Assembly: GCA_050273025.1 (NCBI GenBank)
Contig: CP158635.1
Coordinates: forward strand, 11,160,001-11,224,000
DNA from: Cenococcum geophilum
Taxonomy: Eukaryota
Direction: 5' to 3'
DNA: 64,000 nt
A program made the translations under genes and the position numbers. Under the pieces are notes generated by a model that saw only the letters and a program-made list of their open reading frames with translations, had not been told where the DNA came from and searched no databases. Below are positions 1,751-62,283 of this stretch, in pieces (within the stretch, counting starts at the first letter, position 1; every line of letters begins with the position of its first letter).

Positions 1751-2095
1751 ATGATAGGGTCTATAGGGAGTCACGTGTCCCACAGCGCACGGCTTAAAGT
1801 CTCTACATGAAGAACTTTAAGCAGCAACAACATTATCTAATTGAATTCGAATATGCTAGTTCTCGTCAATTGAAGCTGCTATTGATTTATTCATTTAGAT
1901 CTTATTTAACCGTTAAATCTCCTCCCTTAAAGCCTTGAATTCAGGCCGTTACCGTTGCTCCTCTCCGCCATCCTATATTTATCCCGTCTACTCCTTATAA
2001 CAAATTCTTTTGAAGATGCTCCTGCATACAGTATATGCTTTTATTCGCGTGTTCTTGATAGCGAAGGCTCGCAGACGCGTTGCCCCTCCATTACG

Positions 2096-33500: not shown

Positions 33501-34805
33501 TAGGTATTATTACTACTAGTTATATAATTTGCATATAATGCGACACTATAGAAAGGTATAGAGATATTACTATTTTAGGCGAATTACAAATATAAGCCTA
33601 AAATATTATTATTACCGTAATAAGTAAAGAAAATAAGTAGTATAGTAAAATAGAGAATGGAAACTCTAATAAATCTTTATAAGGACCTCTATTTTATAAT
33701 ATAGTTAGTATAAAAAAAGATAAAAAGGTACTATAATATTAAGAGATCTAAGGGACTAGATCTAAAGGAGGGGGATGAAGTATAGCTATTATATAAAAAT
33801 TTTACAAGTTAACAACTAAGTAAGAAGTTAAACTATATTAGACTAGGACCATTTAAAATTATAACTAAGATTTTAGAAGTTACGTATAGACTTAACTTAC
33901 TAGTAAAGATAAAGATCTACCTTATATAGTATATTATAATACTAGAACTAGTATATAAAGACGTAGAGCTATTAGTCTATAAAGAAGATATATATAAAGG
34001 ATAAGAAGAAGATAAATAGTAAGTTTTAAAGATATTAATAACGAAATAGAGTATAAAGTTAAGTGGATAGGCTATAATAAGACTACCTAGAAGCTATTAG
34101 AAAACTTAAAGAACGCTATAAGAAAGGTATAAGAGTATTAGAAGAGAATAGGTTAGGTAATATTAAGAAGGAGCTAAAAATAAAGAAATTAGTTAAGGGT
34201 AATAAATAAGCCAGATTATTTAAGGGATCTACCGCTAGCGTATAAGTTACTTCTACCTCTTTTTAATTAAAATCCTTTTTAACCTTTTTAGCCTTAAGCT
34301 TACGGAGACCTTACTTAGTAAGACGCTACTCCTTAAAGCGCACCTTCTTATAGACCTTTTTAAGATAGACTAAATAAGCGTAAGTAGTCTGTTAAGCTTT
34401 AAATACTTTTTACTCTTTAGTATAAATTTACTCCCTATTATTATAAAGCTTCTATACTTTAGTAAGAGTAATAGTAAGTTTATTCTTAAGGCGGGACGCC
34501 TTAGATTAAACGTAAGACCCTATAATAAATTAGATAAGGAAGTTAAAGACTAATAAGACTAATAAGACGCGTATACTTAGTGTTAAAGATAAATTAAATA
34601 TTATAAAATAATCGCATATTTACTCACGTATACTTAGTATAAAAGAAATATTAGTAACTAGATGGAGCCGCGATTATAATATATACTAACTTTCTTTCCT
34701 TATAACAGGAATAGGACGGTATAACTTTACTCTATTAAAAAAGAAAATAGAGATCTAACTGCCGGTTTTGGAGGGTTCTGTTACTGTTTTTAGAGGTTAT
34801 ATTAC
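30582..34805 (+). mobile_element. Gypsy family B copy 2, right fragment (pol, chromodomain, antisense gene); no 3' LTR
   Basis: Collinear with 23052-27270 of the full element (protease 30918, GPF 33845, chromodomain 34015-34110). More heavily RIPed. Ends without a PPT or LTR. Confidence 0.88.
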
Positions 34806-35103
34806 TAAAACTCCCTACCGCTCTAAGCCTCTTACTTACTAGTCTAACGTTAAGCCTTTTACTTACCGCCCTACGCCTCTTGCTTTTTAATAGGCAGACT
34901 ATAATCCTTCTATACGCCCGGCACTGAAGCTATATATACTCTATGGCTCCTACCTTTAATCCGTTTAATCTAGGCCTAGTTTCTCTTATTCTCTACCCTC
35001 CTATCTCCTTAACCCCGTATTACTCTTTAGACCCTTTTTACCGTTATTACCCTCTAGGTCCTTTCCGCTGTTACTACCTTAAGTTCTCTTCTAGCTTACT
35101 AGA

Positions 35104-37115
35104 ATACGGCGCGCTTAATTATTAAACCGTAGCTTACTATTTAGCGTTATTAATAATAAGTATATAGGTATAGATAGCGACGGTAATAGCTATAGAACAG
35201 AGCCGACCGTCTTTAATAGTAATACCGATAGTAATGCTAATAGTAACGCCGACTATAACACCAATAGTGGCATTAACTGTAACGCTAATAGCATTGCTAG
35301 ATCTAACGATGCTTACGAAGCGCTCGCTTAAGTATAGCTTTATAAGGATTAAGACCATCTGCTAAAATACTACCTTAAATAGTTAGAAGAGTTTAAGGAA
35401 TCTAATTTTACGACGTAGGACTACGCCAATGCCACTATAGCTCTCCTTAACCACATTAAAGAATACTAGTATTAGTAAGTAATAACCTATTTAGTGGCTT
35501 CCTTTTAAGCCTAACTTAGTAGAGAGCTAATAATTTCTAGATACTGCACCTATATAAGGAAAGACCCTAAGAAAACGTACTAAGTCCTTTTACTTTAGCT
35601 CCTTTATAGCTTCTTTAACTAGTTCCTAAACTAAAAATAAGGGAAAGATAGTAGAAAATAGTATAGGATAAAGGTTTTTAGCTCGTTTAGCCTATACTAG
35701 AAGTACTATCGCCTTATATATAAGAGAGCGACCAGTAAGAAAATTGCTAGTAAACTAACCTGCTAGATATATAAGGTGATTATATTTTTAGTTAATCCTT
35801 TAACCTAGTAAGGTAAGGCAAAGCTAAGATATCTTTCTTAGGTACTTTGGAAACTGGTAAAGAAATATAGTTTAAGCGATAAAAAGTAAGAAAAGACTGT
35901 TATAGACGTAGAGGATCTCGCCCTAGTCTTTAAGACTAACTTAGTTATAATAAGGAAGCGATATATAGTTAGATAATATTAGATATAAGTGCATTTCTTA
36001 ATATAACTAGGTCTTTGCACTATAAGCTAACCTAAAGCTCTTCTAAACCTATACTACCGACATATAATAGTTATACTTATTTAGGACCTAAAGGGCGGTC
36101 CCTATAATATCGTGCTTAAGTTTATATTCAAATTTATTAAGGAATATCTTAGTATAAAGAAAGCGTGTGTTATCTCTATCCTATTTCTCTTACCTTATAC
36201 TTATAGAGAACTAGTAATACTTTCCTAATTTTAGAGATTATTTTTAACCCTTTACTTATTTTTAGCCCTTACGTCTTTTTCCTAGGCCTCTTTTTTACTA
36301 ACTAAGCTTTTAGAGCCCCTAACCTAATATCTACGGAGTAGCTTAGTAAGCTATATATTAAGCCTAGGTGTAACTAGTTACTACTACTACTCCGTTTAAA
36401 CCTAGATAATATCCCCGTATTTTAGCAATTAATTAAAGCTTTTTATAGCTATAAGGTCTTACCTAATTAACCTTTATAGTACTTAACTTTTTTGCCGTAG
36501 ATTAAGGATCTTGGCGTAATTATAAGATTTTGGCAGGTTGCGCGCCTATATAGTCTCCGTTATGGCGTAGGTAAGGCATTTAATAAGAATAGTAAGTTCT
36601 ATTATATAGAGCTAGTCCTACTAAGACATTTCTAATATCTTTACTACCTAGGTAATGTGACTAATGCCCTCCGGAACCTGATAATGTAGTACGCTAACGC
36701 TTAAACGTTCTTAAAGCACTACCTTTTATAGCGTATTGACGTAGATATATAAGCAATTGTTTAAGGCTTAGAGCCTTAGGAAAAGTTAATAAAAGCGGCA
36801 TGCTAAATAAGTTAATTAATTAACCTGTGGCGGCTATAGAACCTAATAAAAGAATAATCCTTATCAGTTAATAAGAACCTATATATTTGTTCCTTAATTA
36901 AAGTTTAAAATAAGCTAAAGTATAGCCTTAAGCGTAAAGTTGTAGAAAGTATAGAATACTAAAAGCTTAACTAGGAAATTATAAATGAAAGACAACGTTA
37001 AAGAAATTCGCTATTAGAAAATATTAAGAAGAATTAGGACAATAAATAAGCTGTAATTAATATTAAGCGGCAACTTTCTAGGGTTAAATTTAGCGAGGAT
37101 ATTAAAGCAAAGTAA
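35104..37115 (+). pseudogene. DUF3435 tyrosine recombinase (Starship captain-type), multi-exon, RIP-inactivated
   Basis: Acidic N-terminus, then de-RIPed HPPEYYL..F..SDF...DYA..T (35354-35437), EKTVMDVEDL (35890), ASRPKALL (36020), RDPKGGP..IVLEF.FEFTKEYLG (36080-36150), IPEIIFDPSL.FSPHVF.LGL (36226-36290), RPYSLRYG.GKAF (36543-36582), LRNL.MQHA...TFLKHYL.R....D.QAIVRG.EPQ (36669-36779), AVIDIERQLSG (37048-37083). The C-terminal end is uncertain. Confidence 0.85.
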
Positions 37116-39769
37116 AAGTATAGATTATTGCGAATACTTTATAGCTTGCTATAAGTTAAGCGGATAGAGACTCTGGTAGGAATAGTAAAATATTATTTTG
37201 TTTTGCGATAGGCTAAATAAAGAGAGGCTAGAGTTTTAACCCTTTTACTAGCTTTTATTAGAACTCTTCTTTATATTTTTATTCTTTACTTATAGATTTA
37301 AGATTATAAAGTTAAGGCCACCGTATCTAACCGTTGCCTATATAGCCTTATTGCTTAATATTTCTTTATTACTATCTACCCCTATTTCTTAATCTTTAGT
37401 ACTAAAACTATTTTCTCCTTTATATAATGTCTCTGTATCCCATTCTTAATCCTTATTGCTAAAGTTACTTTCCTAACCAGCTAACGCCTTTATATTGCCG
37501 TCGTTATCTCTAAAGTCGATTTCTCTATCTATAAACGCCTACTTACTAGCTAATAATTTAGAGACGCTGCGCTTATAGGTACTTAGGGTTATAGGATACT
37601 ACTTAAGGAGAAATTATAATTAATGTTATTGGGATATAGAATAAGCCTATGGACCTCTAAGTACCGGCTACTTAGCGCCTTAAGTAAAAGATCTCCCCTA
37701 ACGCAAGGCAGATTAATAGAAGTTAGTTACTACCTATATAAGGCAGAGCGTTTATAAAGGGCTTAGCTAGAATGCTAATTAAACTACCCTATAGGCACTA
37801 ATAGCTCCTTTACTATAGATAGGGGGTTAATATATAAGATTAACTGGCTAGGATAAGTTTACTACTTAGGCTGTGTCTTGCACCAGAAAGGATAGGCGTT
37901 AAAAGTAGATTATATAATGCTATTCCTACTAAGAGAGGCGTTATTAGGGGTTATTGTTAACTTTTAGTTTTAGTTTATAACTTTATACAAACGCTTCTAA
38001 ACCCTACTAAGGCATATAGCGTCCGTTAGGGATTGTTAGCCGTTTAAATTTAGTAATAGCTTAGCTAATAGCTACTCCTAATAATGCCTTACTTATAGAT
38101 CGCTCTAGGCGCCTATAGTCTTAGGCGCAGACGATATATAAGCTAAGAGTAATTATAGTTACTAAATATTGCATTATAAACACTATATAGGGTGGAAAAG
38201 GGCGGCTAGTATACTCTGCCTTTTTATTCTGCCTTCTATCCTAACTCCGCCCTAGGAGAGAAATAGAATATAAACGTTATGCTCCCGGTTCTTATATATT
38301 ATTAAATTAACTTACCTTTAAACCTAACCTCTTAATTATATACCCCTTATAATCTTTATAGGAATACTAGATATTAAATATTATATATATTATCTTAACT
38401 AAGCTTAGATACGTTGCTAATATAACCTATAGGTCCTTAACTAGTGCTTATAAAAACATTACTATATGCTACTGCCCTGAGGGTAATATACCTAATTATT
38501 AACCTACTAGAAACCTTAAATTATCCTAAAATTGCATTAATAATAAAAATACAGCATCTAGTAGCGGGGAGGAGAAATAATTGTAGTTTTTTAACCCTAT
38601 ATAGAAATAGATACCTTATATACCTATTTAAACACCTAATAAAGTTAATCCTTATAAAAATAAAGATAATATAAAGGGCGATATATAAGAGGACACGGTT
38701 TAGGGAGGTGTATAAAAAATATACCTTAATTACTTTAGGGACTTAGAAGGCTACGGCAAAGCTAAAATAGGCTTACCTAAGCTAATAAAGGACTATAGTA
38801 AGGCCAAGATAAACTCGCCTTAACTAGTAGATATAGTTACGGTTTTTAAATACGTTTTGCCGGTAACTTAAGGTATATTTATAAGACCCTTATATTTATT
38901 TAGCAATACTAATAAGTAAGTAGAGAATAGCTTAACTAATCTTATAACGTTTCTTAGAGTTATATCTCCCTTATTTAAAGTATTAACGATTTCCGATGCT
39001 ATAATTTCGCGTAAATAATTAAAGTATCTCGTTTTATAGTTGCCTTCTTATTATATAATAAAGGACTAGAGATATCTCTAAAGCCCTAGTTATAAAGCAT
39101 TTATATCTACGTTTAGCCCTATTATAGTAATATACTAGTATCCTACTTAGGTTTTAGCTGTGGATATACCGCAAGAGAGACTTGTAATATACTATACTAA
39201 GAACCCTTAATTCCTCTATTGTTATGCTAAAATATATAAACCGCTTAAAGATGTTATAATAGAGATAGCTAAGAGGGTATTAGAGGATTCGCTAAAAGAG
39301 CTATTAGGGAGAAGGATATATAAGAGAAAGGCAGTTTATACCGGAGATAGAGGTTCTAAGAAGCCTAAGGAATAATAAATTTCTTATAAGGAAAGACTTT
39401 CGCAATTATATTTATCTCTTTTAGCATTTATTAAGAATTAAGACGTTAATTAGGATTTCTTTAGCTTAGTATTTTGTTTCTATCTAGTTGCTTCTATATT
39501 AAAAATCTCTTATTCTTGTCCGTATATAAATAAACAAATTCTTATATATTAGAATAAAGTTAGAAAGACTCGCTTACAGTATGTTTTAAAAGTCTTTACC
39601 ATTAAGAAATTTACCGCCTTAGCTTACTGCCTTTTAAATTTAGATATCCTCCCATTCTAGGGTTTAAGTTAACTCTAAATTTTATATTAATAGGGTGGGA
39701 ATATTAAGAATAAATATAGGATCTACCCCTTAATATTAGCCTAAGTTTTAACTAAAAACAAGATCTTAT

Positions 39770-39980
39770 TTTAAGAACTAGATCCAATTTTAAAGACTAT
39801 ATTTTAATTTTAAAGACTATATCCCGATTTCAGGTTCTAGCTTAAATTATAATCCTAAAAACTAGATCTAATTCTAGAGACTAGATCCTAATTCCTATTT
39901 TAAATATAGGTAAATTAACTACTATAAAAAAGGGCGCAATTTTAAAAACTAGATCTAGTCCTAGGAACTAGAACCTGTTT
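39770..39980. repeat. Dispersed short repeats (ACTAGATC[C/T]AATT-type)
   Basis: ACTAGATC-type motif recurs at ~39777, 39861, 39880, 39948, 39967. Confidence 0.5.
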
Positions 39981-40094
39981 TTAGAAAGGTTAACTATATT
40001 TAATTTTAATATAGTAGGCAAAAGTAGGCATATAGAATTGAGCCTAGTTTTATATATATATATATATATATATATAGTATTTAGTATATATTAC

Positions 40095-42530
40095 GCCAGG
40101 TTAGTAAACGCCATACTAACTGCGGTAAAAGACTATATATTAAAAAACTTCTCTAATTCTACCGCTGCTATAATTATAGACGCCTTAATTTTTCTTCTTT
40201 ACTAGACACGAAGCGACTTTTTTTTATAGAGGCTAATACTTACTAGTTATATAGAGTAGGGCGCAAGCTAGGCTAAGCTAACGCCACCTAAATCATTTTT
40301 ATATTAATCTCTTATTGGGCACCAATGCCTTAAGTACTTATACGCCTATTAGACTCTATAACTTATTTATATTTCTAAATTCTTTTTGCTTTGTTCTATT
40401 TAAGTATACTATCTACCTCTTTTATACCTCTTTAATCTCTTTATCGCGTAGAAGCTGTATACTTACTATTACCTACACTAGTTCTTCCTTAGCTAATAGA
40501 ATAGGCTACTAAATCTATTGCGTAAAATATAGCCTTAATTTACTTCCTAACTAGTATATTTCTTACTAGAACCTTTTAGGGCCTATTTTTATAACAACTT
40601 TAACGCCCTTACCTATAATCTTTAGGTCACTATTTCCCCCTACTTTAGGTCCTTTTTAATAGCATAAACCTATATAGAGAATATATACTACTCCCGGACA
40701 GAGCTTGGCTTTATTTAAATTTATACTATTTATCTACCGGCAATATATTCCCTCTTAGAGTCGTACCTTTATAAAATTTATTATATCTAAAAAGGTCTAT
40801 TAAAGCTAAACCTAGTTAAATAAACTTTAAGCTAACTTGGGATTTATATATAGGTTGAGGAAGGAGAAAAGCTAGACTATATATTATTCCATATATTTAA
40901 TGCGGTAGATTATAATTAAACAATAATATTTAGAGGCGTATTTATTAGGATCTCTAATTCTAAAGTACCTAAAGGCACTAGACTACTTAAAGATATTATA
41001 TAGGATAAATCGCATCCTGTTTTTACTAGGTGTAGGGTTAAGGTAATAAATAGCTAAGTAAAGATAATACCTAAGTCCGCTAGAGCTTAAATAAGTTATA
41101 CATTAAAACCGCCTCTTAATAACCGACTTAGAGGGTAATAGAGATATCTATATTTTCTTCCTTAGGAATTAGTATAGTTAAATATTCTATTATTAGAAGT
41201 TCTAGTCTTCTTTCCTTTTCCTATTAATTGCTGGTCTAGACTGCCTTAGAAAAAAAGTCGCCTAAAAGGGGGATATAATTAGTAGGCGCGTTTGTAAATA
41301 TATATTAAATTTCTACAGTATATATTGTTAGCACAGCCTTTAATGCAATAAAGGTAAATCCTACTTACGTCTATATATAAGCTTATTAATACGCCTCCGT
41401 TTCCTTAACCGATTTAATACTATAGGTTTTTCCCTATCTTCTATAGCGGCTAGTAGCTATTAGCTTTATACTTAAAAGTTCTCGCTAAAGTAGACCTTGC
41501 CTTTTAGGAACTTATAATATTTTTAGGATTCTTATAACGGCTTTTTAGTTCCTAAACTATTTAGTATATAATATATATTGGATAGCTATACCTAAATATT
41601 TTCTAGGTTAATCCGCTTAACTATAAAGTTAAACGTATCCTTTAATATTAAATTTACCGTCTATACAGTAGGGTTAAAGGCCGCTACCTAAAAAATTATT
41701 CTGTTAGGACTTAGGCTACAAATCCACTTATACCTTTTTTAGGTCGCCTGCTTCCTTATTTAAGTTATATCTAAATTAATAACTAAATCCTTTAGACCGC
41801 TAAAGAAAAGTACTATTTTTTTGTAAATATCCCTTAATTCTTTAAGTTCAAACTAGTAATAGTGTCTTTTTTATTCTCTTATGCCTAATTTAACCGCTAT
41901 TTACCCTCCTTATAAGCTAACTCTATACGTCTTTTTTTAAGTGCTTTAATCTTTACTAGGAGCTTTTCTATAGCCTTAAAAAGCCTTATACCTAAATCCT
42001 TAATTATTTAATAGTTGCTTTTTATAGGATGCATGTAAGAGCGTGGGACACTATTAATAACCTATTTAAGCTTCTTAGTAAGGTCTACAAGTTATAAGAT
42101 AAATTTAGTAGTCGCTATATTAGGGGTTAATCTAAACGTCGTAAACTAGGCTAGGAAAAGGAGTAGTTCTAAATATCTCTTTAAGGACGATTAGGGGCGG
42201 GGGCTATTAAGAATATTATTATCTTGTATATATCTGCAAGCTTTTATTATAGTTAGGTAACTAAGGTAGCTAAAGGGTAATATACCTAAGTTTTATAAGC
42301 CAGGGTGTAATATATCTGTTTACCCCTTCCTTACTATTTAGTGACCCTAAGTTAGGTTAAGACCTTTACTAATCTTTACTACCTATAGCATATAGCGGGA
42401 ACTTCTTTATACGTAAGAATAAAAATATAGAGCGAGTGGCGTCTTTTTATATTTATACGGTCTAGTAATTTGGATTTAGGCTGCCTTTATACGCAACTTT
42501 ATATTTTATATCGTTTACAGCCTAGCTTAA
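40095..42530 (-). pseudogene. One or two RIPed hypothetical-protein relics (cargo)
   Basis: Readable de-RIPed peptide, e.g. RCKWIRGLSPDGIISWAAAFNPTVWTANSMSKDTFDFVVERI (~41735-41610). Family not identified; boundaries are approximate. Confidence 0.35.
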
Positions 42531-43688
42531 GTCTACGTACGCTCTTATTACTTTAATAAAAATTATTATATAGCTTGGCCTTATAGACATGCATATATAA
42601 CCTCCGCTTAGTATTTTACTAACTAATACGTAGATAGACTATTAAAGGCCTCTAAGGACCTCTAAAGACTTTTAAAGCCCTTTAAAGACCTCTAAAGGCT
42701 AGTAACTATAATACATCTGCTAAAGGCAAGCAGTATATAACCTACCCCTTCTATATTATTAATAATTTAACTACTACTCTTAGATACCTATTTTTATAAT
42801 GGTTATATCTAATATGGGCAAAACTTTAATCTATTGGGTTCTAATAGTAGGGGAAACTATCTTTAAGGAAGAGAAAAGAGGAAAGGTCTCCTATATAGGA
42901 TAGAAAGAAGAAAATTTAAGAGAGGTAAAGGTAAGTAATTGCCTATATATTAGGTGAGCAGGTCCCTAATATTTTAAAGATTTATAAAATTATCGCTATT
43001 ATATATATTGTGCCTAATATTCGCCGGCTTATAGTTCCTATACATAATTTATTTAATTAGCTATTTTTAGGCAAACCTAGTTACTATAGTAGCAGAGTAA
43101 TTCTAGCAGAATTTAAGTATAAGGGAGTATTAACGAGGTCTAGAGCCTATTCTGGTAATATAGCGTTTATAAAAGGTAGAAAGGAAGCTTTAGAGCAATT
43201 AAAGATATATATATAGGAGCTTAATAAAGCCACCTGGGCTACCGCGCCTCCTTTTATATTTAGATTTATATACTAGGCTAGGCCAATACTTATAGCAGCT
43301 ATAGTACTTCCGTATAAGTAATAGTATCTTCTATAGTTATAGGCCTATATTCTAATAAATATAACTAGATAACCTAAGGTGCCTACTACCCTCCTAAAAC
43401 CGTAATTACGGATAACTAGTGCGTAAATAGCTTTTATTTCTATATGGGGCATAAGTATATATATTTACTTACTCCTATAATAATAAGGCCTATATAGTAG
43501 GCTATAGTGGGGGCAAATTACTAGTAGATCTGAGAACAGAGAACGGAAGCTATAGGGTATTAGTTTTTGTAGGGAAGAGGAAAACATAGCTATAGGCTTT
43601 TATAGGGGGGCAAAAGCTATATAGGAGTATAAGCTATAAGGGATTAGTTCCTATAGGGTAGTGAAATATATAGGCATTAGCACCTATA

Positions 43689-43990
43689 GGGGATTCGTTA
43701 GAGTAAGGGATTTGTTAGCATAGGGGATTTATTAAAGTAGGGGATTTATTAGAGTAGGGGATTTATTAGTATAGGGGATTTATTAAAGTAGGGGATTTAT
43801 TAGCGTGGGGGATTTATTAGTATAGGGGATTTGTTAAAGTAGGGGACTAAATCCTATAGGGGATTTATTAGAGTAGGGGATTAATTCTTATAGAGCGGTA
43901 AAATATATAGGCAATCGCTCTTATAGGGGATTTGTTTAAGTAGGGGACTTATTTAAGTAGGGGATTAGTTAGAAGATAGGATTAATTCTT
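43689..43990. repeat. 17-bp minisatellite GGGGATTT(A/G)TT(A/G)(A/G)AGTA
   Basis: About 12 adjacent units at 43689-43890 plus degenerate units to ~43990 and upstream from ~43640. Confidence 0.85.
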
Positions 43991-44280
43991 TTATAGCCTC
44001 TATTTAGGCGGTATAAAGTAGCTTCTAATAGGCTAAAGAGTGGATTACGCGCTTTATAAAAAAATAAAGCCTATATAGAATAATAGGGTATAGGGACCTA
44101 ATAATCTAGCGGAAGATTAGGTTATCCACTCTCCTAGGTTTTATTTAGCCTAGGTAACTCGCCCAACGCTATTTTATATGCGTTTTAATTAAGGCTATTA
44201 CCTAGCCTTAGCCGCCTAAATCTCTACAAAACTTTAACTCGTGTAGTAGAAGAATATAAGATAATAAAATGTTATTTTAT

Positions 44281-46660
44281 CTACTTTACTAATACCTCTA
44301 GATCCTTCTATACTTACTAAAGAATCTCTTTTATTTAGGAATAAAGCGCCCTATCTTCCTTCTCCCACTTCCTATTTATTAGGAAAACTACCTTCCGTAC
44401 CTTATTAACCTATAGAACTAGCGGCTAGTAGTAAGGTATAAATACCTTAGCTATATGGTTAAGAAAATACCCTTTTCTATTTACTAGCCCTAATTTTAAC
44501 TTAGCTAACTTAGTGGTATTCTTATAGTTCTAACGCTTAAACTTAGTTGGACCGATATCTTTACCTAGCCTATTATAGTGTATATATATCTAGAAAAGCA
44601 CCTAGAAGAACAACTCTAGATTATGCCTAAAGGAGTATTTCTTGCCTAGAAGCACTTCTATAGCTATAAACGCTCTTATACTAGTCTTACCCTATGCTCC
44701 TAAAGGTCCTTCTCGCTTCTCTTTAATCGCGAAATTAAAATCAATTAAGAATGCCAGCTAAGAAGGATTGTTATCTTCCTCATTTATTATAAGGTTGCCT
44801 ATTAAAATGTTATATTAGATAATGCCAGCCTGCGTATATAAAGACTTATATCCTTTAATGCCACCCTTTAGTATAGTAAGCATTGTAGCTTAAGAGCTTG
44901 CCTTGTAAAGAGGCTTTTTATAGTTATTAGTAATAACGCGTTAGTATACGCAATTCTATATAATAAGGCGCTTAGTTAAAGAGGTTAAATATAGGCGCTT
45001 ACTGGGCGGTAATAGGGCGCTATAGCTAGAAGACCTCTTTCTGCTAGAACTTTTACCTTTTCTTATACTTTTTTATACTTTAGCTAGTTTATGAGGTATT
45101 ATTAAGCCTTCTAGCTTATAGTTTATCGCTTTTATAATATTTAGCCCCTTATAGATATTAAAGATATTATTATCTTATTCACTTACGCGAATAGTCTTAT
45201 AGTAATAGTACCTGGCTACGTTAATTACTCCCTTCTCCAATATCTTATATAGCAGTTTGCCTTCTTTCTTACGCTCTAGGTACTACTATAAGTCTTTAAT
45301 AATAAGGGGTATCTTAGGTATCCCCTTACGGTGTGCTTTCTAGTAAGTAGTTGCTTAACTAGTAATATAGCGTACCCGCTTTATAAGTTTGTTAAGAATA
45401 AGATACTTAGTTTAATTATTACGCACGACCTTAATATATTGCTTACCGTCTAATATTAGAATAGTAGGGTCGAACCTAAGCTGCTCCTTATTTATTTAGA
45501 GAAATCCCAACATTACCAAGGTAAATTATAGTCCGTTTTTATTAATATTAAATAGTAATAATGCGATACCTTCTACCCGGTTATACTCCTATAGCCGCAT
45601 AATAAATCTATAGAGGGTAAAACCTAGGATAAAGTAATAAGTGTCCTAAGCGGCGAAGACTTCTCTTACGTATTTTCCTAAATTAAACTATGCCTATGAG
45701 GCTATATCGGTATTTAGATTACTCTTTAGCTCTCTTAGCATAAGTATATATAACTAATAGTATTAAGAGCTTTTGCTAGCTATTAGATTATTTATAAAAC
45801 CAATATTTAGCTTTTACTTTACTATAGACCCTTATAAGGGCTGCTTAGTGTATATAATAAGCGTTCGTTATATCTTTAGGGCGGACCCGTACTTCTCTAT
45901 AAAGCCTAAAAATGATTTAATTAGGTTATTAAACCACTCTAAGATATTATCTTGCTCTGTACTTCTAGGCTAGTCACGCTAGCCGCCCTTAGCATATAGT
46001 AGATTATCCCCTTCCTTATATTTCTTAAAAACGGCGGCGCTTACCTATTTAAGACCTTTTACTCCCCTAAAAAATGCTTTATATAAGCTAGAAATCCCTA
46101 TATAAAGAGGGCCTAGCTCCTCCTTTAGAATATAATCCACGTATTTCCTATATTTAGACGAGTTAGTAAAGCTGCTTATGTTATATAAATATAGGGTTTG
46201 AACGTAGAATGGTAGCGGTTAGGGAAAAGGCGTGGACTTTATTATAGTAGTATACGCCTTTTCCTAGATAACCTTGTTAGGTTTAATGCGAAGGATTATA
46301 TTTAGAAGAGGTAAGAACTGCTTAATATTAAAGTTATTAGAACTAACCGCTAAATTAAGTCTAAATAGATTAATAAAAAGACTTTTGTTACCGCCGTTAG
46401 ATGGCAATAAATAAGAAGCGGGAAGGCCCTATAGAGCTAGTATTAAATTAAATAAAATATTCTTTAGTTTTATAAGTATTAGATTAAAACTTATAATAGG
46501 TATATTAGTAATTACCTTTATTACCTATTTAGTATAATAAGTTTAAAGAGCTAGAGATATCTAGATCCTAATAAGCTAAGTTAAATAAATTATAAAAGTT
46601 ATTTAGTTCTTCTCTAATAGGTTTTGTTTTAATTATCTCTAATTAGGAGAAATTTGCTAT
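44281..46660 (-). pseudogene. Fungal-type protein kinase (FunK1 / Pkinase_fungal), RIP-inactivated
   Basis: De-RIPed EIIKTKPIGEGL (start), QTP..NTSSFANSSEHRKYVD.ILKEELGPLY (46205-46100), GELKSN (45735-45718), IKDSWQYPER (45300-45270), GII.CDISIGN (44827-44795), FLIDFDFA (44750), GKTGTRAFMAIEVL (44692-44652), HSFRHDLESFFWVL (44637-44596). Confidence 0.85.
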
Positions 46661-51759: not shown

Positions 51760-52330
51760 AAGGGTGTTATATTAAACGTATTCTAATAAAATAACTATAC
51801 TTCTGCTAGAGAATTAGAGGGTGCCATATTTAACGGGTTTAAATCATCTTAGGAGAATAGCGGCTGCATTAGTTCTAGTAAATTGTTAAAGGGCGTAGCA
51901 TTAAATATATTTTAGCAAAATAACTATACTTGCCCTATTGTATTTAAAGTATTCTAGTTATCCTATAGGGGCGGCTACTATATTAGCTCTTGTAGATTAT
52001 TAATAGGAGTAGCATTAAACGTATTTTAATAAAATAACTATACTTACTCTACTAAAGAATTAGTGGCTACTATACTTAACGAGCTTAAATTACCCTAGGA
52101 GGATAGCGGCTGTATTAGCTCCGGTAAATTATTAAAGGGTATAGCATTAAATGTGTCCTAATTGCGATTAAAGGGCGTAGCATTAAACATGTTTTAATTA
52201 GGTAGCTACACTAGTTCCGTTAAAGAACTTAAGGGTGCTATACTTAATATATACCCGAATAGCTTTTTATATAGCTATAATACTAATTCCTTAAACTCTA
52301 TTTAAGAACTAGAGGGCGTTGCCTTAAATT
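51760..52330 (+). repeat. Degenerate internal repeats (GGGCGTAGCATTAAA motif; ~250-bp duplication) in a RIPed cargo gene relic
   Basis: AGGG(C/T)GT(A/T)GCATTAAA-like motif at ~51761, 51890, 52005, 52137, 52172, 52314. Segment 51775-51905 is repeated at 52015-52150. Confidence 0.6.
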
Positions 52331-52750
52331 TATAAATATTTATATACTAGGTAAAACTTAACAGTCTTTAGAACTCTTATTTATATATATAGCAGTATTT
52401 ATCTAGTTAACTCTTTTCTTTATAGAACTTCCTTATATATTTCTAGATATTATACAACTTACTAAAACAGTAGGTGCAAAATAGATACGGAAATTTCTTT
52501 AAAGGCTTTCTCCCCTTTTTAAGAGATAATATACAATCCGTAGCTTATACGTTATTCTTAGTCTAATAATACCTAACATTCCGCTTACTTTGGTAAGGTT
52601 TAAAGATTATAAAGTAACCGCGTTTTTATATTAGAGGTATTATAACGTATAGGGTTATACTAGATTCCTAAGTTTTAGTAAATAGAGATTAGATAGGTTC
52701 TATTACTTATAATTCCTACACTTTTAAATATATGTTTTATATAGTATAGG

Positions 52751-54578
52751 CCAAGGGTTTATAGGCCAGAAAGAAACATTACTAGTCTTCAGCGGATACC
52801 AGAGCCCCCCTATCGCAGTTGCAACAGAAATACCACAAGGATCACCCCTCTCGCCTATACTCTTCCTTTTCTTTATAAGCAACCTGCTTAACTCCTTTAA
52901 GGAAGGGGCGACCTAGGGAATAGGCTTTATTAACAATATAAACCTAATCACATACGGGCCAACAGCCGTAGAGAATTGTAGAACACTAGAGAAAGCCTAT
53001 AACACTTATATAGAATGGGCAAAACGTTATAGAGTCTAATTCTCACCAGAGAAATACCAGCTAATCTATTTCATAAGAAAACGCAACTAATCTGCAGATC
53101 TCTAGCATATAATTTGCATCTAAGGCTTTAGGGGTTAACCAGTTTAGGGCCTAAGGGTATTAAAAGTATAGGTAAATAGTAAGCTCTAGTAGAGCGCATA
53201 TACGGCGCAAGCGGCCCATAAAGGCCAAGCATAGTTTATCGCTTTATCCAGGATTATTAATTCTATATAGGGTCCATACTTCTAGAGGTCACGCCTATTA
53301 TATATAGCAGTTATCCGGCCAACCATAACATATAGATCTAGTATTTAGGCCATTAGAGAAACTAAGAAGGGCCCCCCTAAATCACTCCTTAAACCACTTT
53401 AAAAGGTCCAAACAGCCTACCTCCGGAGTATCACAGGCGGGTATAAGCGAACGGCCACAGCACTGCTTAAGAAGGAATCCAATATTCCCCCCCTATAATT
53501 ACATATTAAAGCCGCTATAATATAAAGGACGTAAAATAAACGCAACTCTAATATTATAAAGTATATTAAGACACGCCTAAGTAAACTATAGAGGGACCTT
53601 AAGGTGCCCCATAAGAGAACAAACCAACAACCCCAAAGTAGGGAAGAGATATTAGAGAAACAGGTAAAGAAAGTAGAAGAAGAATAATGCCGCTTTAGGG
53701 CCTAGGCCCATATAGAGGAGGAAGGGAGACGTATAAGAGGTCAGCAAAGACAACAGCAAGACAGAGAAAAGAGCCAAAGTAGAATACGCAAGAACGCCAG
53801 GAAACCATCTACCGTAATATAATACTAGTTAGACTAACGCTAGAGAGGTAAATAGGAGTTAAAGGTATAGAGGCTAACTTAGGCAAGACAAACCTAAGCT
53901 ATAGTATAGTTAACGCCATAGGGGGTAAATACCTAAGGGCTCTAAGAAGGCCTAACAAAGGCAGAAAATATAATAGTAATACTCTTAAGAACAGGAATAA
54001 TAGGACTAAAAGACTAGCTTTACTAGGTAGGTGTCCTAGTAGGTAGCCCAAAATATAAATGTAGCTAGCTAAAACAGACACTAAAACACGTAATACTACT
54101 ATACCCCCTACACACTAATTAAGAAATAATGCTCTTAGCAGCTGGCATAGAGAACTATAATACACTACTCTTAACACAAAAAGGCCTCAAGGCGGTTACC
54201 TAGTAGCTTATTAGCCAAAATATGCTAAATCAGTTCCGGGTTATAAGGGAAATAGTAATAAAAGGCAAGGGGGCAAGCAGCAGGTGCCCCCTAGTAACTC
54301 TACAGTAGTAGAGTAAAAGTTTATAATACTAGCGCGTCCGTAGGCTTATTACGGCAGCAGTAGTTCCCAAGAAGGTTAAATAGTAAGGTAGTAGAGTACC
54401 ACAGGCGACTTATAGGCGCTAAGTAGGCGAGTCCTAAAAGGCGGGGAGATGGATTACGGGGTTTTCTTATTTTTCTTAAATAGAGTTTTCTCCCCATATG
54501 TAAATAAGGAGTAGTCCGCGTGGGCCTAATAGGGATCCAAATCGGACGTTAAGCAATGAATTATTATTATTATTATTA
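52751..54578 (+). mobile_element. 5'-truncated copy of the Tad1-like LINE
   Basis: Reverse-complement match to 17164-18808. IPQGSP at 52830. (ATT)n tail 54560-54580. TSD TTATATAGTATAGG at 52737-52750 and 54579-54592. Confidence 0.93.
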
Positions 54579-54892
54579 TTATATAGTATAGGAGAGATAT
54601 CTATAGTTCCTGCTATATAGGGGACTAAAGGCTTTAAACTATCCCTACTATAGTTAATAATAGATACTCGTTATTTATATAGGAGGCTACTAGGTACTAT
54701 AGGGAATTAGCGCAGATCTCTAAGGTTATAGACTTTATTAAGCTTCGTTACTAAGTAAAGAGGCTGCCTATAATTAGGAGGAATTATAATACTAAAGGAG
54801 TTATTATACGGATACTAAGGAAGGTAAAACTAGGGCTTATTATTAGCGAGACTATAAAATAGGGAAAGATTAGAAGGAATAAGAGCGAGAAT

Positions 54893-55150
54893 TGTAAGGG
54901 TTATTTTGGCCCTTACTCGGCTGCATCGCCTAGGGGCTCTTAGGGGTCGCCAAGGCTAGCCTTCGGCTAGCCCTTGGCACCTCCTTATAAGCACCTCAGG
55001 CTTGCAGCCCTTCCCTCCTCATCGGTTCGTCTCTGTACTCAGGCTATTGCCTACCCTCATTACCATATCGTCCTCTTCCATCGACTCCCTATGTGACTCA
55101 TGCTCGGCTTGCCTGCTCCCTACCGTACACCCTGGCAATACTGCCTTACA
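54893..55150. mobile_element. Solo LTR (258 bp)
   Basis: TGTAAGG...CCTTACA inverted termini; 5-bp TSD AGAAT at 54888-54892 and 55151-55155; GC-rich and little RIP. Confidence 0.9.
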
Positions 55151-58100
55151 AGAATCTAGATAATATGCGTTATATTAGCATATTATATATAGGCTATAGG
55201 GGCTAAGCTTATTAAATAGGGAATTATAAGCTGCTAGGGCGAGAGTACTAGAAATAAAAAGCGTGCTAAGTAAGCCTATACCTTAGTAAAAGAGGTACTT
55301 AGAGATATTAAGGCTAAGAAGGCGTATATAAAAGAAGGCGGAATTACAAATATAGCTATTAAGACTAATCTTAAGATCCTAGCTATTTTCGCTATCTTTT
55401 TTTAGCTTAAGGAGGCTAGTTTCCTAAGGCGCTATAAAAGTTCTAAAAGAGTTCTATATAAGTTATATAGAAGTCCTAAAGGAGTTACAGAGAAGTCCTA
55501 AAAGATTCCTAAAGGATTGCTAAGAGATTACTATTAAGGGGCACAATATTCTATAAAGGTGGTTAGAGGGAATTAGGCTATAACTTAGCCTTATAGCCGC
55601 CCTATTACCCTACTACCCTATTATACTATTACCTTATTACCTTATTGCCTTATTACCCTTTTTTACTTTAGTTAATCTCTTTATTAGTAAAACACTTCTA
55701 CTTTTTAAAACAATATATAAACTTCCTATTATAGCATTTATTGGCGCTAAGTTTATTTATTTACTTGTTTTTAGTTAAGTAGTGCTTTTATAGCTTTATT
55801 TACTAACTACCTTATAGTATTTTCTCCGCTTTTAAATAATTTTTTACTTTCTTTCTCTCTAAACTATTTTTAGAGTCTCCCTTTATTACTAGCTTAAAAA
55901 CATCTCTCTTACTTCGGCTAAGTTATTATATATATTATTAGAGCTGTCCTAGTATACTAGACTAGCTATTAAGGTTTATATATATAGCCTCTTAAAGTAA
56001 ATTGCTAACTAAAAATTAGGCTTTATTCTTGTGGAGATTCTATATAAATATTTTAAAAACTATTTTTAATAAGGATTTCCTAGTCGTTACTAGTATTACT
56101 ATACTTACCTTTCTACTCCTAATTTCCGGCTTCGTACTAGTATTCTTTCTATAATACTGGATAATAGGGCGTTTATTAGCTTTTTTAGATGGTCTCTTAG
56201 TAAATATATTATTAGGTGTAACTCTTACTGCTTTTACCTGGATAGTAAGAAAATATAAAAGGTTAAAAGTGTTATAGCTCTTATGCGCTATGGTTATTCT
56301 TATACTATATTCTGGCATTTACTTTATATTTATTAATATATATCTATTTCTTTTAGTAAGCTACTATAGTAACGCTTTAGTGACCTCCACTAATATAAAT
56401 AGGGACACTTTCTTATAAAATATATTATAAACGTTGCCGTTATTTTACTATAAGCTTGGTCGCTTTATATTAAATATTAATAGTATAACGTAATATCTTA
56501 AGATATACCTATTAGCCCTAGTGACTTAGAGAAAGCTATACGGAGATATTTAAACCCTAAATACCCTAACTAACCTATTAGCCTTAATAACTTAGAGGAA
56601 GCCATAATATTAAACCCTAAATCCTCCTATATTAAAACTAATCGTAGGAGAAATAGGTTAGTTTTTAGTTATCTTAGTTACTTCTTAGGCTAATACTAGC
56701 TTAGTAGTTTTAAAATTTATATTAGCTATTCTATTAATATAACCTATAAAGTGCAAAGAGAAGGCAAGACCTTTTTATCTAAGAATTTTAAAGCTATAGA
56801 CAATCCCCCGCTAAATAAGGGCCTTTAATTTAAGGTATATAGCCTATAGTAGGATTACATCTTTCTACCTAAGAAGGTTAAAGCTATAGATAACTTCCTA
56901 CTAGATAAGGTTTTCTTTAGAGATAATTGCTATATACTTTAGTTATACCTTAAACGTATATATCTTAAGTAAGAGTAGGGAAACTTTATATCCTAGATGC
57001 TAAAGCTTAGTGACTTAAGAGGGGAGGCTATAAAAAAGCTAAGGCTGTAAGAGGTATATATAAGGAACTATTAAGTTATTTAGAAGGAATTTTCTTCCTA
57101 GGTAGTAGCTATATATAGACTTTATTAAAGCTCAAAGCCTCTTACTGCCTTTAAACTTCCTTAGAAAACTCGGCTAAGGTATAGCTTCTCTTTTAAAGGC
57201 ACGTAGTATTATCTAAAATTGCCTTATATAGCTAACATTAAGATATACTCTATTAAAGCCACTAAACGCGTCTCTAGCTTTATACCTTATTATATAAAAC
57301 CAAACTATAGTTTTTATTTATTTTTAGGAGGGAAGGCCTTATATAGAGTCTCTTATTATTATATAAAACTTTTATACTAGAAGTATACTAAATTTTTAAG
57401 GGCTAGGAGCGGGGATATGCTAGCGCTCTATAACTTGGCTAATTACTTCTAGTTATATAATAAAGCCTTAATAAGTAATGGTTTAAATATCTATAGGTTT
57501 TATTATAGATAGGTAACTAGGGTAATTAGGGGAATATATACCTAAGCACGAGCTAAAGTATAGCGCATTTACTTTACCCCTCTTAAATAGTTAGACTTTT
57601 ATATTTTAAAGTCTAAGCTATAATCTATAGGGTAAACTACTAATTTAAAAAAGCCCTAAATACTACCTACTCTCTTACTTATTAATCTAAAATATGCTAG
57701 CTTTTATATATTAACTAATACCGGAACTAAGCCCCTATATATAGCCCCGTACTTTTAAGCCTATTACTTAGCTTAGAGTTAGGAGAATATTAGTATAATT
57801 TAGCACTTTAGGGCTTACTAGCTTAGCTACTAGAACGCCTTTATATCTATAGTAGCGTACTAATAGATTTTTTAATAGGTAATTAGTATTCTGTTCTTAC
57901 TTTATAGGTTAATTAATACCTCCAATTTTAGGCTTATATATACTTTTACTACCTCTAAATAATTAGGGTTAAACTATATTATAGTTAGCCCTCTACTAAC
58001 CTTTGCTACGTATAACTATATATCCGCATTAAGTTGCTAACGCCGCCTTTTAATATATTTAGTATACTAGGTTTAGACCTATATATACCCTTATTATTCT

Positions 58101-60739
58101 AGTAAGATATTAGCTATATATAGTATAATTAACCTTTAACTAGTCTTTAATATATATATAGTATAGCATATACTATTATTTTATCGGCTAATATATTAAT
58201 AGACTACTAAGTTTAGACCTCTAGAGCTAACATTCTTATTACTTACTATATTATATCTTCCTAGGGAGGTTCCCAATCCTAAGGATATTCTTATAGCCGC
58301 TTTTATAACTCTTAAAGCCGCCCCTATAGCAATAAGATTTTAAGTCCTTACTACTAACTTTAATAAAAGCGTTTATACAACTAATAGTAATTACTCTGTG
58401 CTCATTTATATTGTAATACCTCTTAATAACTACACTATATTAAGTTTAGAGATTCTTTATAATACGATTTATAAAAAAGGTATTAAGTACATAGTTAGTA
58501 TATATAATATTTCCGGTAAAGCCTATAAGAAGCTTTTTAATAAACTTATAGTTTTACGCTACTATCTAAGTATATATCCTTTAATAATATAATTTTCTGG
58601 ACTAATTATAATATAAAGTAAGGGGCAAAAACTAAAAAAGAAGCTTTTAAATAAGCACTTAAGGAATATATAGTAGAGTAATAGAATAAAGGATAGATTA
58701 TATAGATAGCTGAAAAGCTTAAGCTATAGGGGTAGGTAAGCCAGCTTACTTACTACTAAATTAAGGGTGCTATATATTAGAGGCTACAGAAATACTACTA
58801 TCTAATTATATAAAGGAATATTTTATAGGTACATAGGAATAATTAGAAAATTTTATATAGACTATTAAGGAATATAGAGTCCTATAAAACATTTTTGTTA
58901 TTATATTTTTAAGATAAGGTTTAAAATAAATAAGACTTAATATAGCTTAGATGGAGGACCTAGGGTTAGTATATCTGCTATAAAGACTAATCTTATCTAA
59001 AAATAGCGTCTAAAATCTAGGGTAAATAATAGATTAGTTAGCTAGATACTAGGATTTTTCTACCCCTTTAAAGCCCTTTATTACTTTAATACTTATAAAC
59101 CTTATTATAGTGCTACCTCCTAGCTATAGCTATAAGAATCTTATTAGCTAGGGAATTTCAGGTATTATATATTACGATAAACTTTAAAATAAGGTTATTA
59201 AAGCTCTAAATAATACGAATTCTTAACGCTTTATTAAAGTTAAAAAGAAGATTTATAAGAGACTTAGTTAATATAATAGACTCTTATAATACTATAGCAG
59301 CAAACTTTTCTAAAAGGATAACTATATAGTAATATATTTAGAACGCGCTCTAAATAGCTAGCTCTATAGGTTTCTTTAGGATAAAAGTAATAACGTTAAT
59401 TAACTTTTATAAATGCGTTAGATTTTATAGCTTATAGATATTCTTAAATATATTTACTCTAGATATATTATATATAGTAATATTTTATACTATAATATTC
59501 TCTTAAATATTCTCTTAAATATAAAGCTAATTAACTTTACTAGTTTATTAATTAATAGGTCTCCTCTTTTTACTTTATACTTTATTTAAGCCTAAGCTCT
59601 ATATTTAAGTACGCCTTAAAAGGACAAAATTTTTGCCTTTAGATTAGCTTATTATTATATCTTAATATATTATATTGCCTTTTATAAGCTTTCTAATAAC
59701 AATATAGAAGATTATTATAAATAAGGAATATTTCCTAAATTAAAGTCCCTAGGGGCCTTTAGAGTTATTATTAAAGGCTATTAAAACAGTAAATATAACT
59801 ATATAGATAACGTTATTAAAGAAATAGATAAGTAAGGTAGGTTTATAAAACTAGGAATTTTAACTATCTAAACTTATTTACAGATTTACGGAATCTATCC
59901 TTAGTAACGGCGCCATAGTATTTCCTCTATACTCTTAAGGCTTTCCTTTTAATATTTATAAAATCTTATCTTTAGCTTAAAAATCTAAAGGCTACTCTAT
60001 CTAGATTTATACTTTACCTATTTCTTAGGCATTATTAGCATTAATAAAGGTAAATTTTATACTTTATAAGTTTATTAGTCTTACTATCTTTATATATAGT
60101 GTAATATACTAACTATCCTTTATTTAAAATATACTAAATAATTTCCGGTTATTAGCAAGCTCCTAAACTGTGCCGTACTTTATATTATAGGTATTAGGTT
60201 AAAATACATTTACCTACCTTATATAATAGCGCTAGGGTAAAGGATAATGTAATTTATCTTTAAGGAATATCTTAGTCTCTTCTAATACTTTTTATATTTA
60301 ATAGTAATTTTAGTAGATTAGCACATCTTAAGTATAAAAAAGTTTATAATTTAACAAATTCTTTTAAGTATATTAATAGTAAAAGAGGATTTATAATATA
60401 AATAAATAGGTACTATAATGCCTAGTAATATAATAAGTCTTATAACTTATAAGGCTCTGTTTTAATTAGATATATATAACATAGATAAGTTAATAGCAAA
60501 ATTTAGATAAAAACGGCTGTATATAGTAACACCGCCTTAAGAAAATGCACTTAAATAATTAGACTACTAAATATAAACCCCAGCTTCCTATTTTTATAAA
60601 ACTAACCAAAATATAAAAATACGCCTAAGCTACTAGCCCCGTCTCTTCTATATAGTAACTCTGCCCTTTATCCCTATAACTTTAAAAAAAGAGTATACCT
60701 GCAATAATCTAGCTTTAGCTTATTAAACGCGTCTTTAAT

Positions 60740-60875
60740 AAAACTTAAAGGTATCTTTAAAATTTAAAAGCCCGCTTTTATAAACCTAGGTAGGCTTCTA
60801 AGCCACCTTATATTTATGCCCTAACTTAGTTATTCTTTCCCCTAGAATATTATCAATCTCTTATTTATTATCTAA
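60740..60875 (-). pseudogene. Chromo-like domain relic within a larger RIPed gene (~60.5-62.2 kb)
   Basis: Reads DNK*EIDNILGERITKLGHKYKVA*KPT*VYKSGL. De-RIPed this is DDEWEIDDILGERITKSGHEYEVAWKPTWVHESGL. No integrase lies upstream. Confidence 0.6.
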
Positions 60876-62283
60876 GCTTATTTTATTAATTTTATCTTTT
60901 TTAGTCTAGGTACGGCGCTTTATAGTAGGCTCTAGGTTTAAAATATTGCTTTAGTTATTAGTAACACTATTACTATTACCGTCCTCCTTATTATAAATAT
61001 AACTGCTAGCCTTATTATATAGTAGTTTAATACTATAGAGAAGGGTAGGCTCTTAAAGTAAAGGGCTAGCGGGCTATAAAGTAAATACTGCTTGCTAGTT
61101 AACTTATAGGTATTAAAAGTTAAGGTTAAGAATAGGAGGGATAAGGGGACTAGAAGATAAGTCTTCGCAGTAAATAGGTAGCCTTTATTACTTCTAGGGA
61201 CGTAGATTATTACTACCTTTACCGCCCTTACCACCTCTACTACTCTCTTTAGTAGGGTTATTAGAATTAGAATTAGTAATATCCTATTTAAGCTTCTGCT
61301 TCCTTAGTATAAAGGATAATTTACCTCCTATATTCCCTTTTTTATAATTACCCTCCTCCCTAATAAGCAGATTGTCTATATATTATAGTTATTAGGTTAT
61401 AGTAACAATATTTTTAATATTTATAACTTACTAATATTATCCGTATTATTAACTATTAAGTTTTAGTTAGTTACTATATAGGTCTCTAAGTTCTATATAG
61501 CCTAGGGGATAGTTATAATATTAATTCCCCTAGCTAGGCTATCTATTTTATTAACGCCTTTTACTATAGGTTTAAGATAGTTATATATAGATACGCTAAA
61601 GAGATCTTCTAGTTCCTTTAAAGAAGGTAACTCCTTATCCTTATTATTCTTATTACTGCGGTTATTTCCGCTACCTAATAATTATTAAGTAAGGACGTTA
61701 TATAGGGGGGAAGTATATACCTAACCTATAAGGTGCTAGTTAATCGCTAACTTTATTAGCTTTATTACTAGTATTACTAACTCCGCCGCCTTTAACTTTA
61801 GGTTTTAAGTCTAGGTTAGCTATATTATCTTTAATAAATATTAGATTTACTACTAACTATTAGATATATTTATAGTTATTAAAAATAAAAAAAGGGGATA
61901 ATTACTAAATTACCTTAATTACTTCCTCTAATGTCTTAGCTGTTACTTATATTTTTATAAATATCTTTATATTTATTAAAAGCCTTAGGATTTACGGGTG
62001 CCTTATTAGGTGGAATATTTAAAAAAGGTAATATAGAATAACTTACCTAAGTATAACTAGGCTAAATATTTTATAGAATTATCTCTTAAAGGGAAGTAAG
62101 ATACTCTCTCCTTTTTTATCCTCTTTTTAAGTATATTACTTATATTTACCCTAGAAGCTATAATTATATAATACTAAGAAGCATTTAGTTTTTTAGAAAG
62201 TATAGTATAGAAATTAATATTATTAAGTAAAATTTATAAATTAAAATAAAGGGGTTAAGAAAATGCCACTATTACTACCGCTA

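Follow-up and report, generated by a model that had tools for sequence, protein, structure and literature searches.

Starships are giant, cargo-mobilizing transposons of the Pezizomycotina that are moved by captains, tyrosine recombinases of the DUF3435 type (PMC11162782). In the excerpted text of that article, the captain lies at most 7 kb, and usually no more than 2 kb, from the 5′ boundary and points into the element; Starships are described as low-copy, and their boundaries are supported by direct repeats, sometimes by terminal inverted repeats (TIRs), and by empty sites. [quoted passage not shown] Nested TEs and RIP-degraded Starship copies also appear in the available part of the Tangerine preprint (10.1101/2025.11.25.690456), and 11 captain families are described in the reference phylogeny. 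Starships are regarded as rare, low-copy carriers of useful genes, and they are difficult to detect, since their annotation relies on captains that are intact and on empty sites. Related to Starships, according to the excerpted article (PMC11162782), are the Cryptons, DNA transposons of conventional size that likewise encode tyrosine recombinases.

The DNA analyzed here is a 64,000-nucleotide (nt) stretch of Cenococcum geophilum contig CP158635.1 (positions 11,160,001 to 11,224,000), which as a whole is called the window. Within it, positions 34,726 to 62,284 probably constitute one derelict, RIP-inactivated, and rearranged copy of a Starship-like giant transposon, and we are highly confident in regarding the element as a cargo carrier of at least 12.5 kb with the captain as its first gene. 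As in Starships, the first gene is a DUF3435 captain that lies ~0.4 kb from the 5′ boundary and points inward; the units shared by other copies are longer than 11 to 12 kb, and the one here is probably ~27.6 kb, as judged by end matches and a gap length; and variable DNA behind a conserved captain, nested TEs, an AT- and TE-rich setting, and inactivation by RIP are all present. In contrast to Starships, for which a low copy number is expected, one captain lineage occurs here at tens of copies per genome, with neither a 3′ boundary nor a direct repeat nor an empty site established and no recognizable cargo or companion gene beyond a FunK1 kinase. The tyrosine recombinase as sole recognizable mobility gene, the Crypton-sized module of 3.05 kb that holds it, the high copy number, and the lack of TIRs recall Cryptons. 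Unlike a cargo-free Crypton, however, the module is followed by many kilobases of shared, captain-linked DNA, and its protein matches DUF3435 in full and has as its best relatives DUF3435 proteins of 600 to 740 amino acids (aa). The kinase relic resembles FunK1 proteins (Pkinase_fungal, PF17667) in covering nearly the whole profile but differs from them in that it is dead, is repeated, and moves along behind a captain; in the literature covered by a full-text search, no paper brought Starships and FunK1 together. The element is of a known kind and stands out by its many copies and by the modular variants that follow a single captain module.

The captain relic and its 5′ terminus

The captain relic was located at 35,167 to 37,109 on the + strand by Pfam and tblastn searches. 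Profile PF11917 matched one + frame over profile positions 1 to 106 (E = 3.6e-9; approximately nt 35,908 to 36,235) and the next + frame in two stretches from profile positions 86 to 211 onward (E = 1.1e-50, 173 bits; approximately nt 36,213 to 37,000). The best of 20 homologues, all of which carry PF11917, was P0001, a 734-aa protein (44% identical, E = 4.5e-65) whose DUF3435 domain at aa 197 to 604 is a full match to profile positions 1 to 418; the closest relatives are 600- to 740-aa DUF3435 proteins of Dothideomycetes and other Pezizomycotina. In tblastn, aa 9 to 322 of P0001 aligned to 35,167 to 36,318 and aa 280 to 560 to 36,207 to 37,109. The relic is RIP-mutated, contains a single frame change near 36,210 to 36,318, and lacks the final ~175 codons; position 34,944 carries a possible ATG. 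Results thus confirmed the original prediction of a DUF3435-type captain, which had been made from short protein motifs: YSLRYG and FLKHY are intact, and RDPxGGP, FTKxYLG, PEIIFDPSL, and MQHA are present in RIP-mutated forms. No second DUF3435 relic was found in the window by tblastn with P0001.

A scan of metagenome contigs with the translation of the relic returned 104 relatives, of which 80 loci were kept with flanks of up to 10 kb; two datasets supplied 32 and 30 of them. These loci span only ~12.4 kb from their left ends, which places the distal parts of the element beyond their reach. In 47 of the 80 loci, similarity to the window began at 34,719 to 34,737 (mode, 34,726), and conserved sequence (TACTCYATT...) starts at 34,726 to 34,728 in the terminus, which we place at 34,726 to 34,767 (+). 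Upstream flanks adjoining this boundary were alike in just 2 of 903 locus pairs and unrelated in the other 901. A shared exact start next to unrelated upstream flanks identifies the left end as a genuine transposon terminus, and the left limit of 34,806 first proposed for the block must accordingly be moved 80 bases further left.

The captain lies on the + strand and points inward, with aa 9 of P0001 mapping 0.44 kb inside the 5′ end, so that its proposed status as first gene of the element is borne out. Other loci have the captain in the same position and orientation, with the gene at 0.4 to 2.84 kb from the terminus. Relative to P0001, the captain is full length in other copies, as 68 of 80 reach aa ~730; every one of the 80 is nonetheless RIP-mutated (median of 36 in-frame stops, minimum of 18; maximum GC content, 0.398), and no intact captain was seen among them. 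A 40-nt terminus sequence was found in 52 forward copies and no inverted copy across the 80 loci.

The terminus contains a 7-bp hairpin with arms at 34,730 to 34,736 and 34,746 to 34,752 around a 9-nt A-rich loop; the consensus arms are CTCCATT and AATGGAG. From its sequence, it may be a hairpin recognized by the recombinase. The terminus also starts with a TTAC-containing motif, reminiscent of TTAC(N7)A, which is quoted as the target site of the Hephaestus family in the excerpts of PMC11162782.

On the outer side of the terminus, a very abundant repeat is present in two direct copies that are 79.5% identical (window 23,052 to 26,673 and 30,582 to 34,173, plus 26,967 to 27,070 and 34,503 to 34,606), and the second copy stops just short of the 5′ terminus. 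In some other loci a repeat of ~5 kb, also found at window 11,555 to 16,520, adjoins the captain 5′ end at differing repeat positions (L030, 7,895 to 8,548; L062, 8,160 to 8,563). From this arrangement, the element would seem to have inserted into resident TEs, at no fixed site.

Sharing and RIP of the DNA behind the captain

In nearly all loci, similarity to the window ended on the right at 37,110 or 37,123. The downstream DNA beside this break was alike in 1,653 of 1,711 locus pairs; because the loci resemble one another beyond the break, the window copy is the truncated one. A small repeat of 2.4 kb was rejected on the same grounds, the break being a deletion. The captain module common to all copies measures 3.05 kb and contains the recombinase gene only. 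Beyond it, the DNA falls into a few classes shared by ~38, ~27 to 30, and ~10 loci, within which nested subgroups share progressively more.

The length of shared DNA was assessed in those 25 loci whose flanks comprise 1 kb or more on the upstream side and 11 kb or more on the downstream side. Among the resulting 300 pairs, 148 were collinear over at least 3.5 kb, 52 over at least 5 kb, 21 over at least 7 kb, and 12 over at least 11 kb, and 10 of these last 12 had no upstream similarity. Four loci (L014, L021, L031, and L077) are 90 to 93% identical over at least 12.3 kb, to the ends of the loci, and a second group (L001, L002, L007, and L062) likewise shares long downstream DNA. Copies that start at the same base, stand at different genomic sites, and share more than 11 kb show that the duplicated unit is large and captain-first.

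Segments of the window were then compared with the locus flanks (393 kb upstream and 483 kb downstream, 876 kb in total). The part at 37.0 to 40.0 kb, which contains a segment that we call module S, matched 4 to 12 loci downstream of captains (one more in inverted orientation) and 0 to 1 upstream; 42.5 to 43.5 kb (module T) matched 11 downstream and none upstream; and 44.0 to 47.5 kb (FunK1 module) matched up to 9 downstream and none upstream. Generic repeats of the window (16.5 to 34.5, 52.5 to 54.5, and 62 to 64 kb) matched both flanks in both orientations. That the three modules are linked to the downstream side, while generic TEs occur on both sides, supports their belonging to the element.

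The entire window is AT-rich (GC content of 0.24 to 0.44 per 2-kb bin) and, in 31 of 32 such bins, has RIP-like indices (TpA/ApT of 1.5 to 2.0; (CpA + TpG)/(ApC + GpT) of 0.2 to 0.6), the sole exception being 6,001 to 8,000. By these indices the captain-led block is affected no less than the neighboring TEs, as had been claimed. Between the captain module of the window and the 80 copies (median identity, 84%), transitions outnumbered transversions by 19,393 to 2,255 (8.6:1), and the commonest contexts were C/T preceding A (2,990) and G/A following T (2,769), with C/T preceding T next; isolate contigs displayed a transition excess as well. The substitution pattern among copies is that of RIP, and the block is a RIP-affected repeat. 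Heavy RIP had been taken from the outset to imply former duplication of the block, with which the transition pattern agrees.

No open reading frame (ORF) of at least 150 aa occurs anywhere in the window, in keeping with the earlier remark that the ORF track was empty here, and stop-codon density failed as a coding detector, with reading frames inseparable at a background of 0.093 to 0.098. Pfam was applied to all six frames of 34,000 to 62,500 with stops read as X and a limit of E = 0.01. Three families emerged: DUF3435, Pkinase_fungal/FunK1, and a sub-threshold RVT_1. A chromo-like protein had also been predicted, but no Chromo family was found in these frames at that limit.

Layout and extent of the window copy

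The window copy matches the captain module of long copies from 34,728 to 37,110, where a deletion junction is located and ~3.5 kb, corresponding to relative positions 2,390 to 5,928 of locus L029, is missing. Alignments of the window beyond the break with L028, L029, and L011 all begin at relative position 2,385. L028 and L029 match each other as homologues in the 60 nt before the junction, where the window instead carries captain sequence; this shows an internal deletion of ~3.5 kb that took the captain C-terminus. Module S (37,110 to 39,996, +) follows as the collinear continuation of the element in L028 (84% identity at relative 8.26 to 10.43 kb and 70 to 72% on to 11.94 kb) and L029 (80% at relative 5.93 to 8.63 kb and 72% on to 8.89 kb). 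It contains no Pfam family, even in the less mutated L028 homologue.

Next comes a block of 7.2 kb at 39,997 to 47,183 that lies on the − strand, opposite in orientation to the other copies. It comprises segment U (39,997 to 42,436, −), with no match in other copies; module T (42,437 to 43,323, −), which 11 loci have in the opposite orientation, all downstream of captains; a tandem-repeat patch (43,637 to 43,997); and the FunK1 module (43,813 to 47,183, −), which matches up to 9 loci per 500-bp bin, downstream of captains only. In L029 and the L028 group, S leads directly into the FunK1 module, which starts at the equivalent of window 47,183 and runs as the reverse complement of the window down to 43,813. 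L027 has the FunK1 module directly after the captain module, and L001 has FunK1 fragments followed by T. A single inversion of 39,997 to 47,183 explains the reversal of T and of the FunK1 module alike; an exception to the opposite orientation is 44,280 to 44,498, which matches four L001-group loci in the orientation of the window. Given this inversion and the 3.5-kb deletion, the simple captain-plus-cargo layout originally proposed does not hold for the window copy. Internal inversions recur in the family: L011 and L028 differ by one of 4.2 kb (relative 7.3 to 11.5 kb) and are otherwise collinear.

Within the inverted block, a FunK1 kinase relic was identified at 44,586 to 45,771 (−), which covers positions 18 to 386 of the 387 in PF17667 in one RIP-mutated frame (E = 2.2e-67), as predicted. 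In other copies the gene is on the captain's strand. Named among its 22 homologues (E = 1e-5 or better; best, 55 to 59% identical) are seven short annotated fragments of Cenococcum geophilum, and other fungi have full-length relatives of ~580 to 670 aa.

The middle of the block (47,184 to 58,412; GC content, 0.25 to 0.37) contains a nested retroelement fragment at 52,753 to 54,589 (+). This fragment is 90% identical, in inverted orientation, to window 17,196 to 18,806, includes a weak RVT_1 match at approximately 52,806 to 53,070 (25.8 bits against a cutoff of 29.6), and recurs in other loci upstream as well as downstream of the captain and in either orientation. It is a general repeat of the genome and not cargo; of the dead cargo initially envisaged for the block, the FunK1 gene stands, with no other cargo gene identified.

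The distal 3.9 kb (58,413 to 62,284, +) is the candidate 3′ end. It matched a single locus in the 876 kb of flanks, at positions 2 to 3,860 of L029 (89% identity). L029 and L011 lie in the same orientation on one contig, Ga0307515_10000754, and the match is found there on the captain's strand, 27.9 to 31.7 kb downstream of the left end of the L011 captain; the equivalent distance in the window is 23.7 to 27.6 kb. The end of the L011 locus, which runs leftwards in window coordinates, corresponds to window 46,458, and the gap to L029 is 15,554 bp. Under the assumption of collinearity, in which the gap would contain 46,457 down to 39,997 plus 47,184 to 58,411, the window predicts 17,689 bp, or 15,852 bp once the nested retroelement is removed. 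After window 62,284 the two copies diverge fully, into a repeat of long terminal repeat (LTR) type in the window and satellite-like DNA on the contig. The matching gap length and the end at the same base support a right boundary here, which would give a unit of ~27.6 kb in the window and ~31.7 kb on the contig. We infer that 47.2 to 58.4 kb is probably one with the rest of the element, of which 62,284 may be the 3′ end. The right limit first proposed for the block, 62,283, falls at this base-exact junction (62,283/62,284) and is thereby supported.

The flanking LTR-type repeat (62,283 to 64,000, +) lies outside the element, and five other copies of it begin at 62,283 or 62,296. Its first ~190 nt (193) occur twice in L027, at 1,198 to 1,380 and 7,332 to 7,525, 6.1 kb apart, as would be expected for LTRs. 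Satellite-like tandem repeats at window 296 to 1,751 resemble L029 4,200 to 5,100, past the right end of the second copy. A GC-rich 9-mer, ATAGGACGG, is present at 34,705 to 34,713 and 62,288 to 62,296, 6 nt beyond the left end and 3 nt beyond the right; as a target duplication it was rejected, being adjacent to neither end and lying in flanks that are different repeats. Position 13,170 of L001 was likewise rejected as a 3′ terminus, as it is an insertion point specific to the L001 group.

Copy number and competing interpretations

Logan contigs of four runs were mapped on window positions 27,000 to 46,999 at a likeness of at least 90%; most contigs were 90 to 95% alike, and their summed word depth serves as a rough sign only and not as copy number. 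Runs containing 35,000 to 44,999 carry two organism labels or are root metagenomes, of which there are two. In three isolates, each part of the block drew many diverged contigs. Summed depth in run X4 was 360 to 410 for the captain, 1,577 to 1,953 for 37.0 to 38.3 kb, 61 to 72 for 40.3 to 43.0 kb, and 484 to 1,376 for 43.7 to 47.0 kb, the FunK1 module; the left neighbor at 27.0 to 34.3 kb was highest, at 14,500 to 70,500. Single exact contigs in X4, which has exact pieces of the window locus, had a depth of 4 to 7. Across X4, X8, and X18, captain depth was 360 to 800, compared to 4 to 10 for single contigs. Almost none of the captain family was present in X21, a run with the same species label (captain depth of 4.5 to 10, ~40- to 100-fold lower), and the 40.3- to 43.0-kb part was absent from its contigs at the 90% threshold, although low shares in X21 to X24 are no proof of absence. 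The contrast between X4, X8, and X18 on one side and X21 on the other points to lineage-specific expansion or cryptic species.

Several observations weigh against one captain-led giant element spanning 34,726 to 62,284. With regard to copy number, summed depth differs ~50-fold between segments, which would fit independent repeat families too, and the rough measure of tens of copies per genome departs from the expectation that Starships are low-copy. Among the isolate contigs, whose listed pieces measure 117 to 455 nt, there was no sign of an empty site. At the ends, the window and the 10 kb downstream in the loci lack an inverted copy of the 5′ terminus, a direct repeat or target-site duplication is not established, and there is no 3′ terminus on which several copies agree, as the DNA that they share has ragged right ends (5.8 to 7.7 kb). 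Support for the far end is a single contig, and similarity may end at 62,284 because the LTR-type repeat inserted into a still longer element. In the middle, 47.5 to 52.5 and 55.5 to 57.5 kb match none of the 80 loci, which reach ~12.4 kb. As to content, no cargo gene apart from FunK1 was recognizable by Pfam in 34,000 to 62,500 or in the module S homologue. Genes for DUF3723, patatin, ferric reductase, and NACHT proteins are the usual companions of Starship captains, and none of these families was present in that interval at E = 0.01. The depth differences can be explained by cargo variants together with the 90% likeness cutoff. The uneven depth had at first suggested a mosaic of independent repeats, but it was not accepted as decisive, given that such depth does not measure copy number, that most contigs were only 90 to 95% alike, and that cargo variants account for the pattern.

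The strongest competitor holds that only 34,726 to 47,183 (~12.5 kb) is captain-led, that the remainder to 62,284 consists of unrelated RIP-degraded repeats, and that the L011 match is coincidental. The unmatched middle segments, the single match of the distal segment, the general retroelement at 52,753 to 54,589, and the character of the whole window as a repeat graveyard all speak for it. Yet loci that reach ~12.4 kb could not have contained the distal parts, and a rare distal segment lies in the right orientation at a distance that agrees within 0.3 kb once the retroelement is removed, or within 2.1 kb with it. We consider this shorter extent unlikely.

A segmental duplication, or the capture of downstream flank by read-through from an element whose 3′ end is weak, of the kind known from Helitron-type transduction, would require no defined giant element and would account for a clean 5′ end with ragged 3′ extents and no 3′ repeat or TIR. 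However, segmental duplications would not start at the same transposon base in 47 loci, and the order of modules recurs in independent copies (S then FunK1 in L029 and the L028 group; FunK1 fragments then T in L001); ragged ends are also expected where copies have suffered deletions and nested insertions, and examples of both were observed. This origin is highly improbable. Although all 80 copies share only the 3.05-kb recombinase module, are numerous, and have no TIR that was found, we give almost no credence to a ~3-kb, one-gene transposon of Crypton type with chance neighbors behind it, as downstream classes are shared by ~10 to 38 loci, groups share 11 to 12.3 kb or more with unrelated upstream flanks, modules S, T, and FunK1 occur only downstream of captains, and the stop at 37,110 is a copy-specific deletion.

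The Starship-like reading thus retains the larger part of the original prediction of a multi-copy giant element, namely a RIP-killed, once multi-copy, captain-headed unit with 47 shared left ends and at least 11 to 12.3 kb of shared DNA; its extension over the whole block is the probable part. In this family, the captain gene stands first, ~0.2 to 0.45 kb inside the exact 5′ terminus and transcribed inward, followed behind the 3.05-kb captain module by variable DNA that, in the form to which the window copy belongs, includes a FunK1 gene on the captain's strand. The captain recombinase would have excised and integrated the entire unit, and the family would have risen to tens of copies per genome with several cargo variants. 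Duplication would then have exposed the family to RIP (C to T, mainly at CpA), destroying every copy seen. In addition, the window copy lost 3.5 kb including the captain C-terminus, underwent the 7.2-kb inversion, and gained the retroelement fragment. The window element is now dead, with no evident present function.

A broader proposal, that a Starship lineage behaved as a bursting high-copy transposon of tens to ~100 copies per genome with at least three cargo variants (one with FunK1) behind one captain module whose exact 5′ end bears the hairpin, and contributed measurably to genome expansion in a RIP-competent fungus before RIP killed the copies, is tentative and falls somewhat short of an even chance; the near absence of the lineage from X21 belongs to the same picture. 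If so, a captain lineage multiplied to tens of copies, diversified its load, and was then erased by RIP in every copy seen, leaving behind blocks of ~27 kb that are invisible to gene callers. Confirmation in a complete assembly would provide a system in which to study what limits Starship copy number and how cargo is exchanged between copies that share a captain module, and would bear on how much of the unclassified AT-rich DNA of large fungal genomes is dead Starship.

Outside the element, 6,600 to 7,700 (−) is alone in the window in lacking a RIP-like signature, with a GC content of 0.44 and a composite RIP index of −0.04. It contains open, exon-like frames with the Ser/Thr protein kinase motifs HASDIWSLGV and APEVW and a C-terminal ...RPTAEEALQHPF, and judging by these features a kinase gene with introns has probably survived there intact, as an island among repeats.

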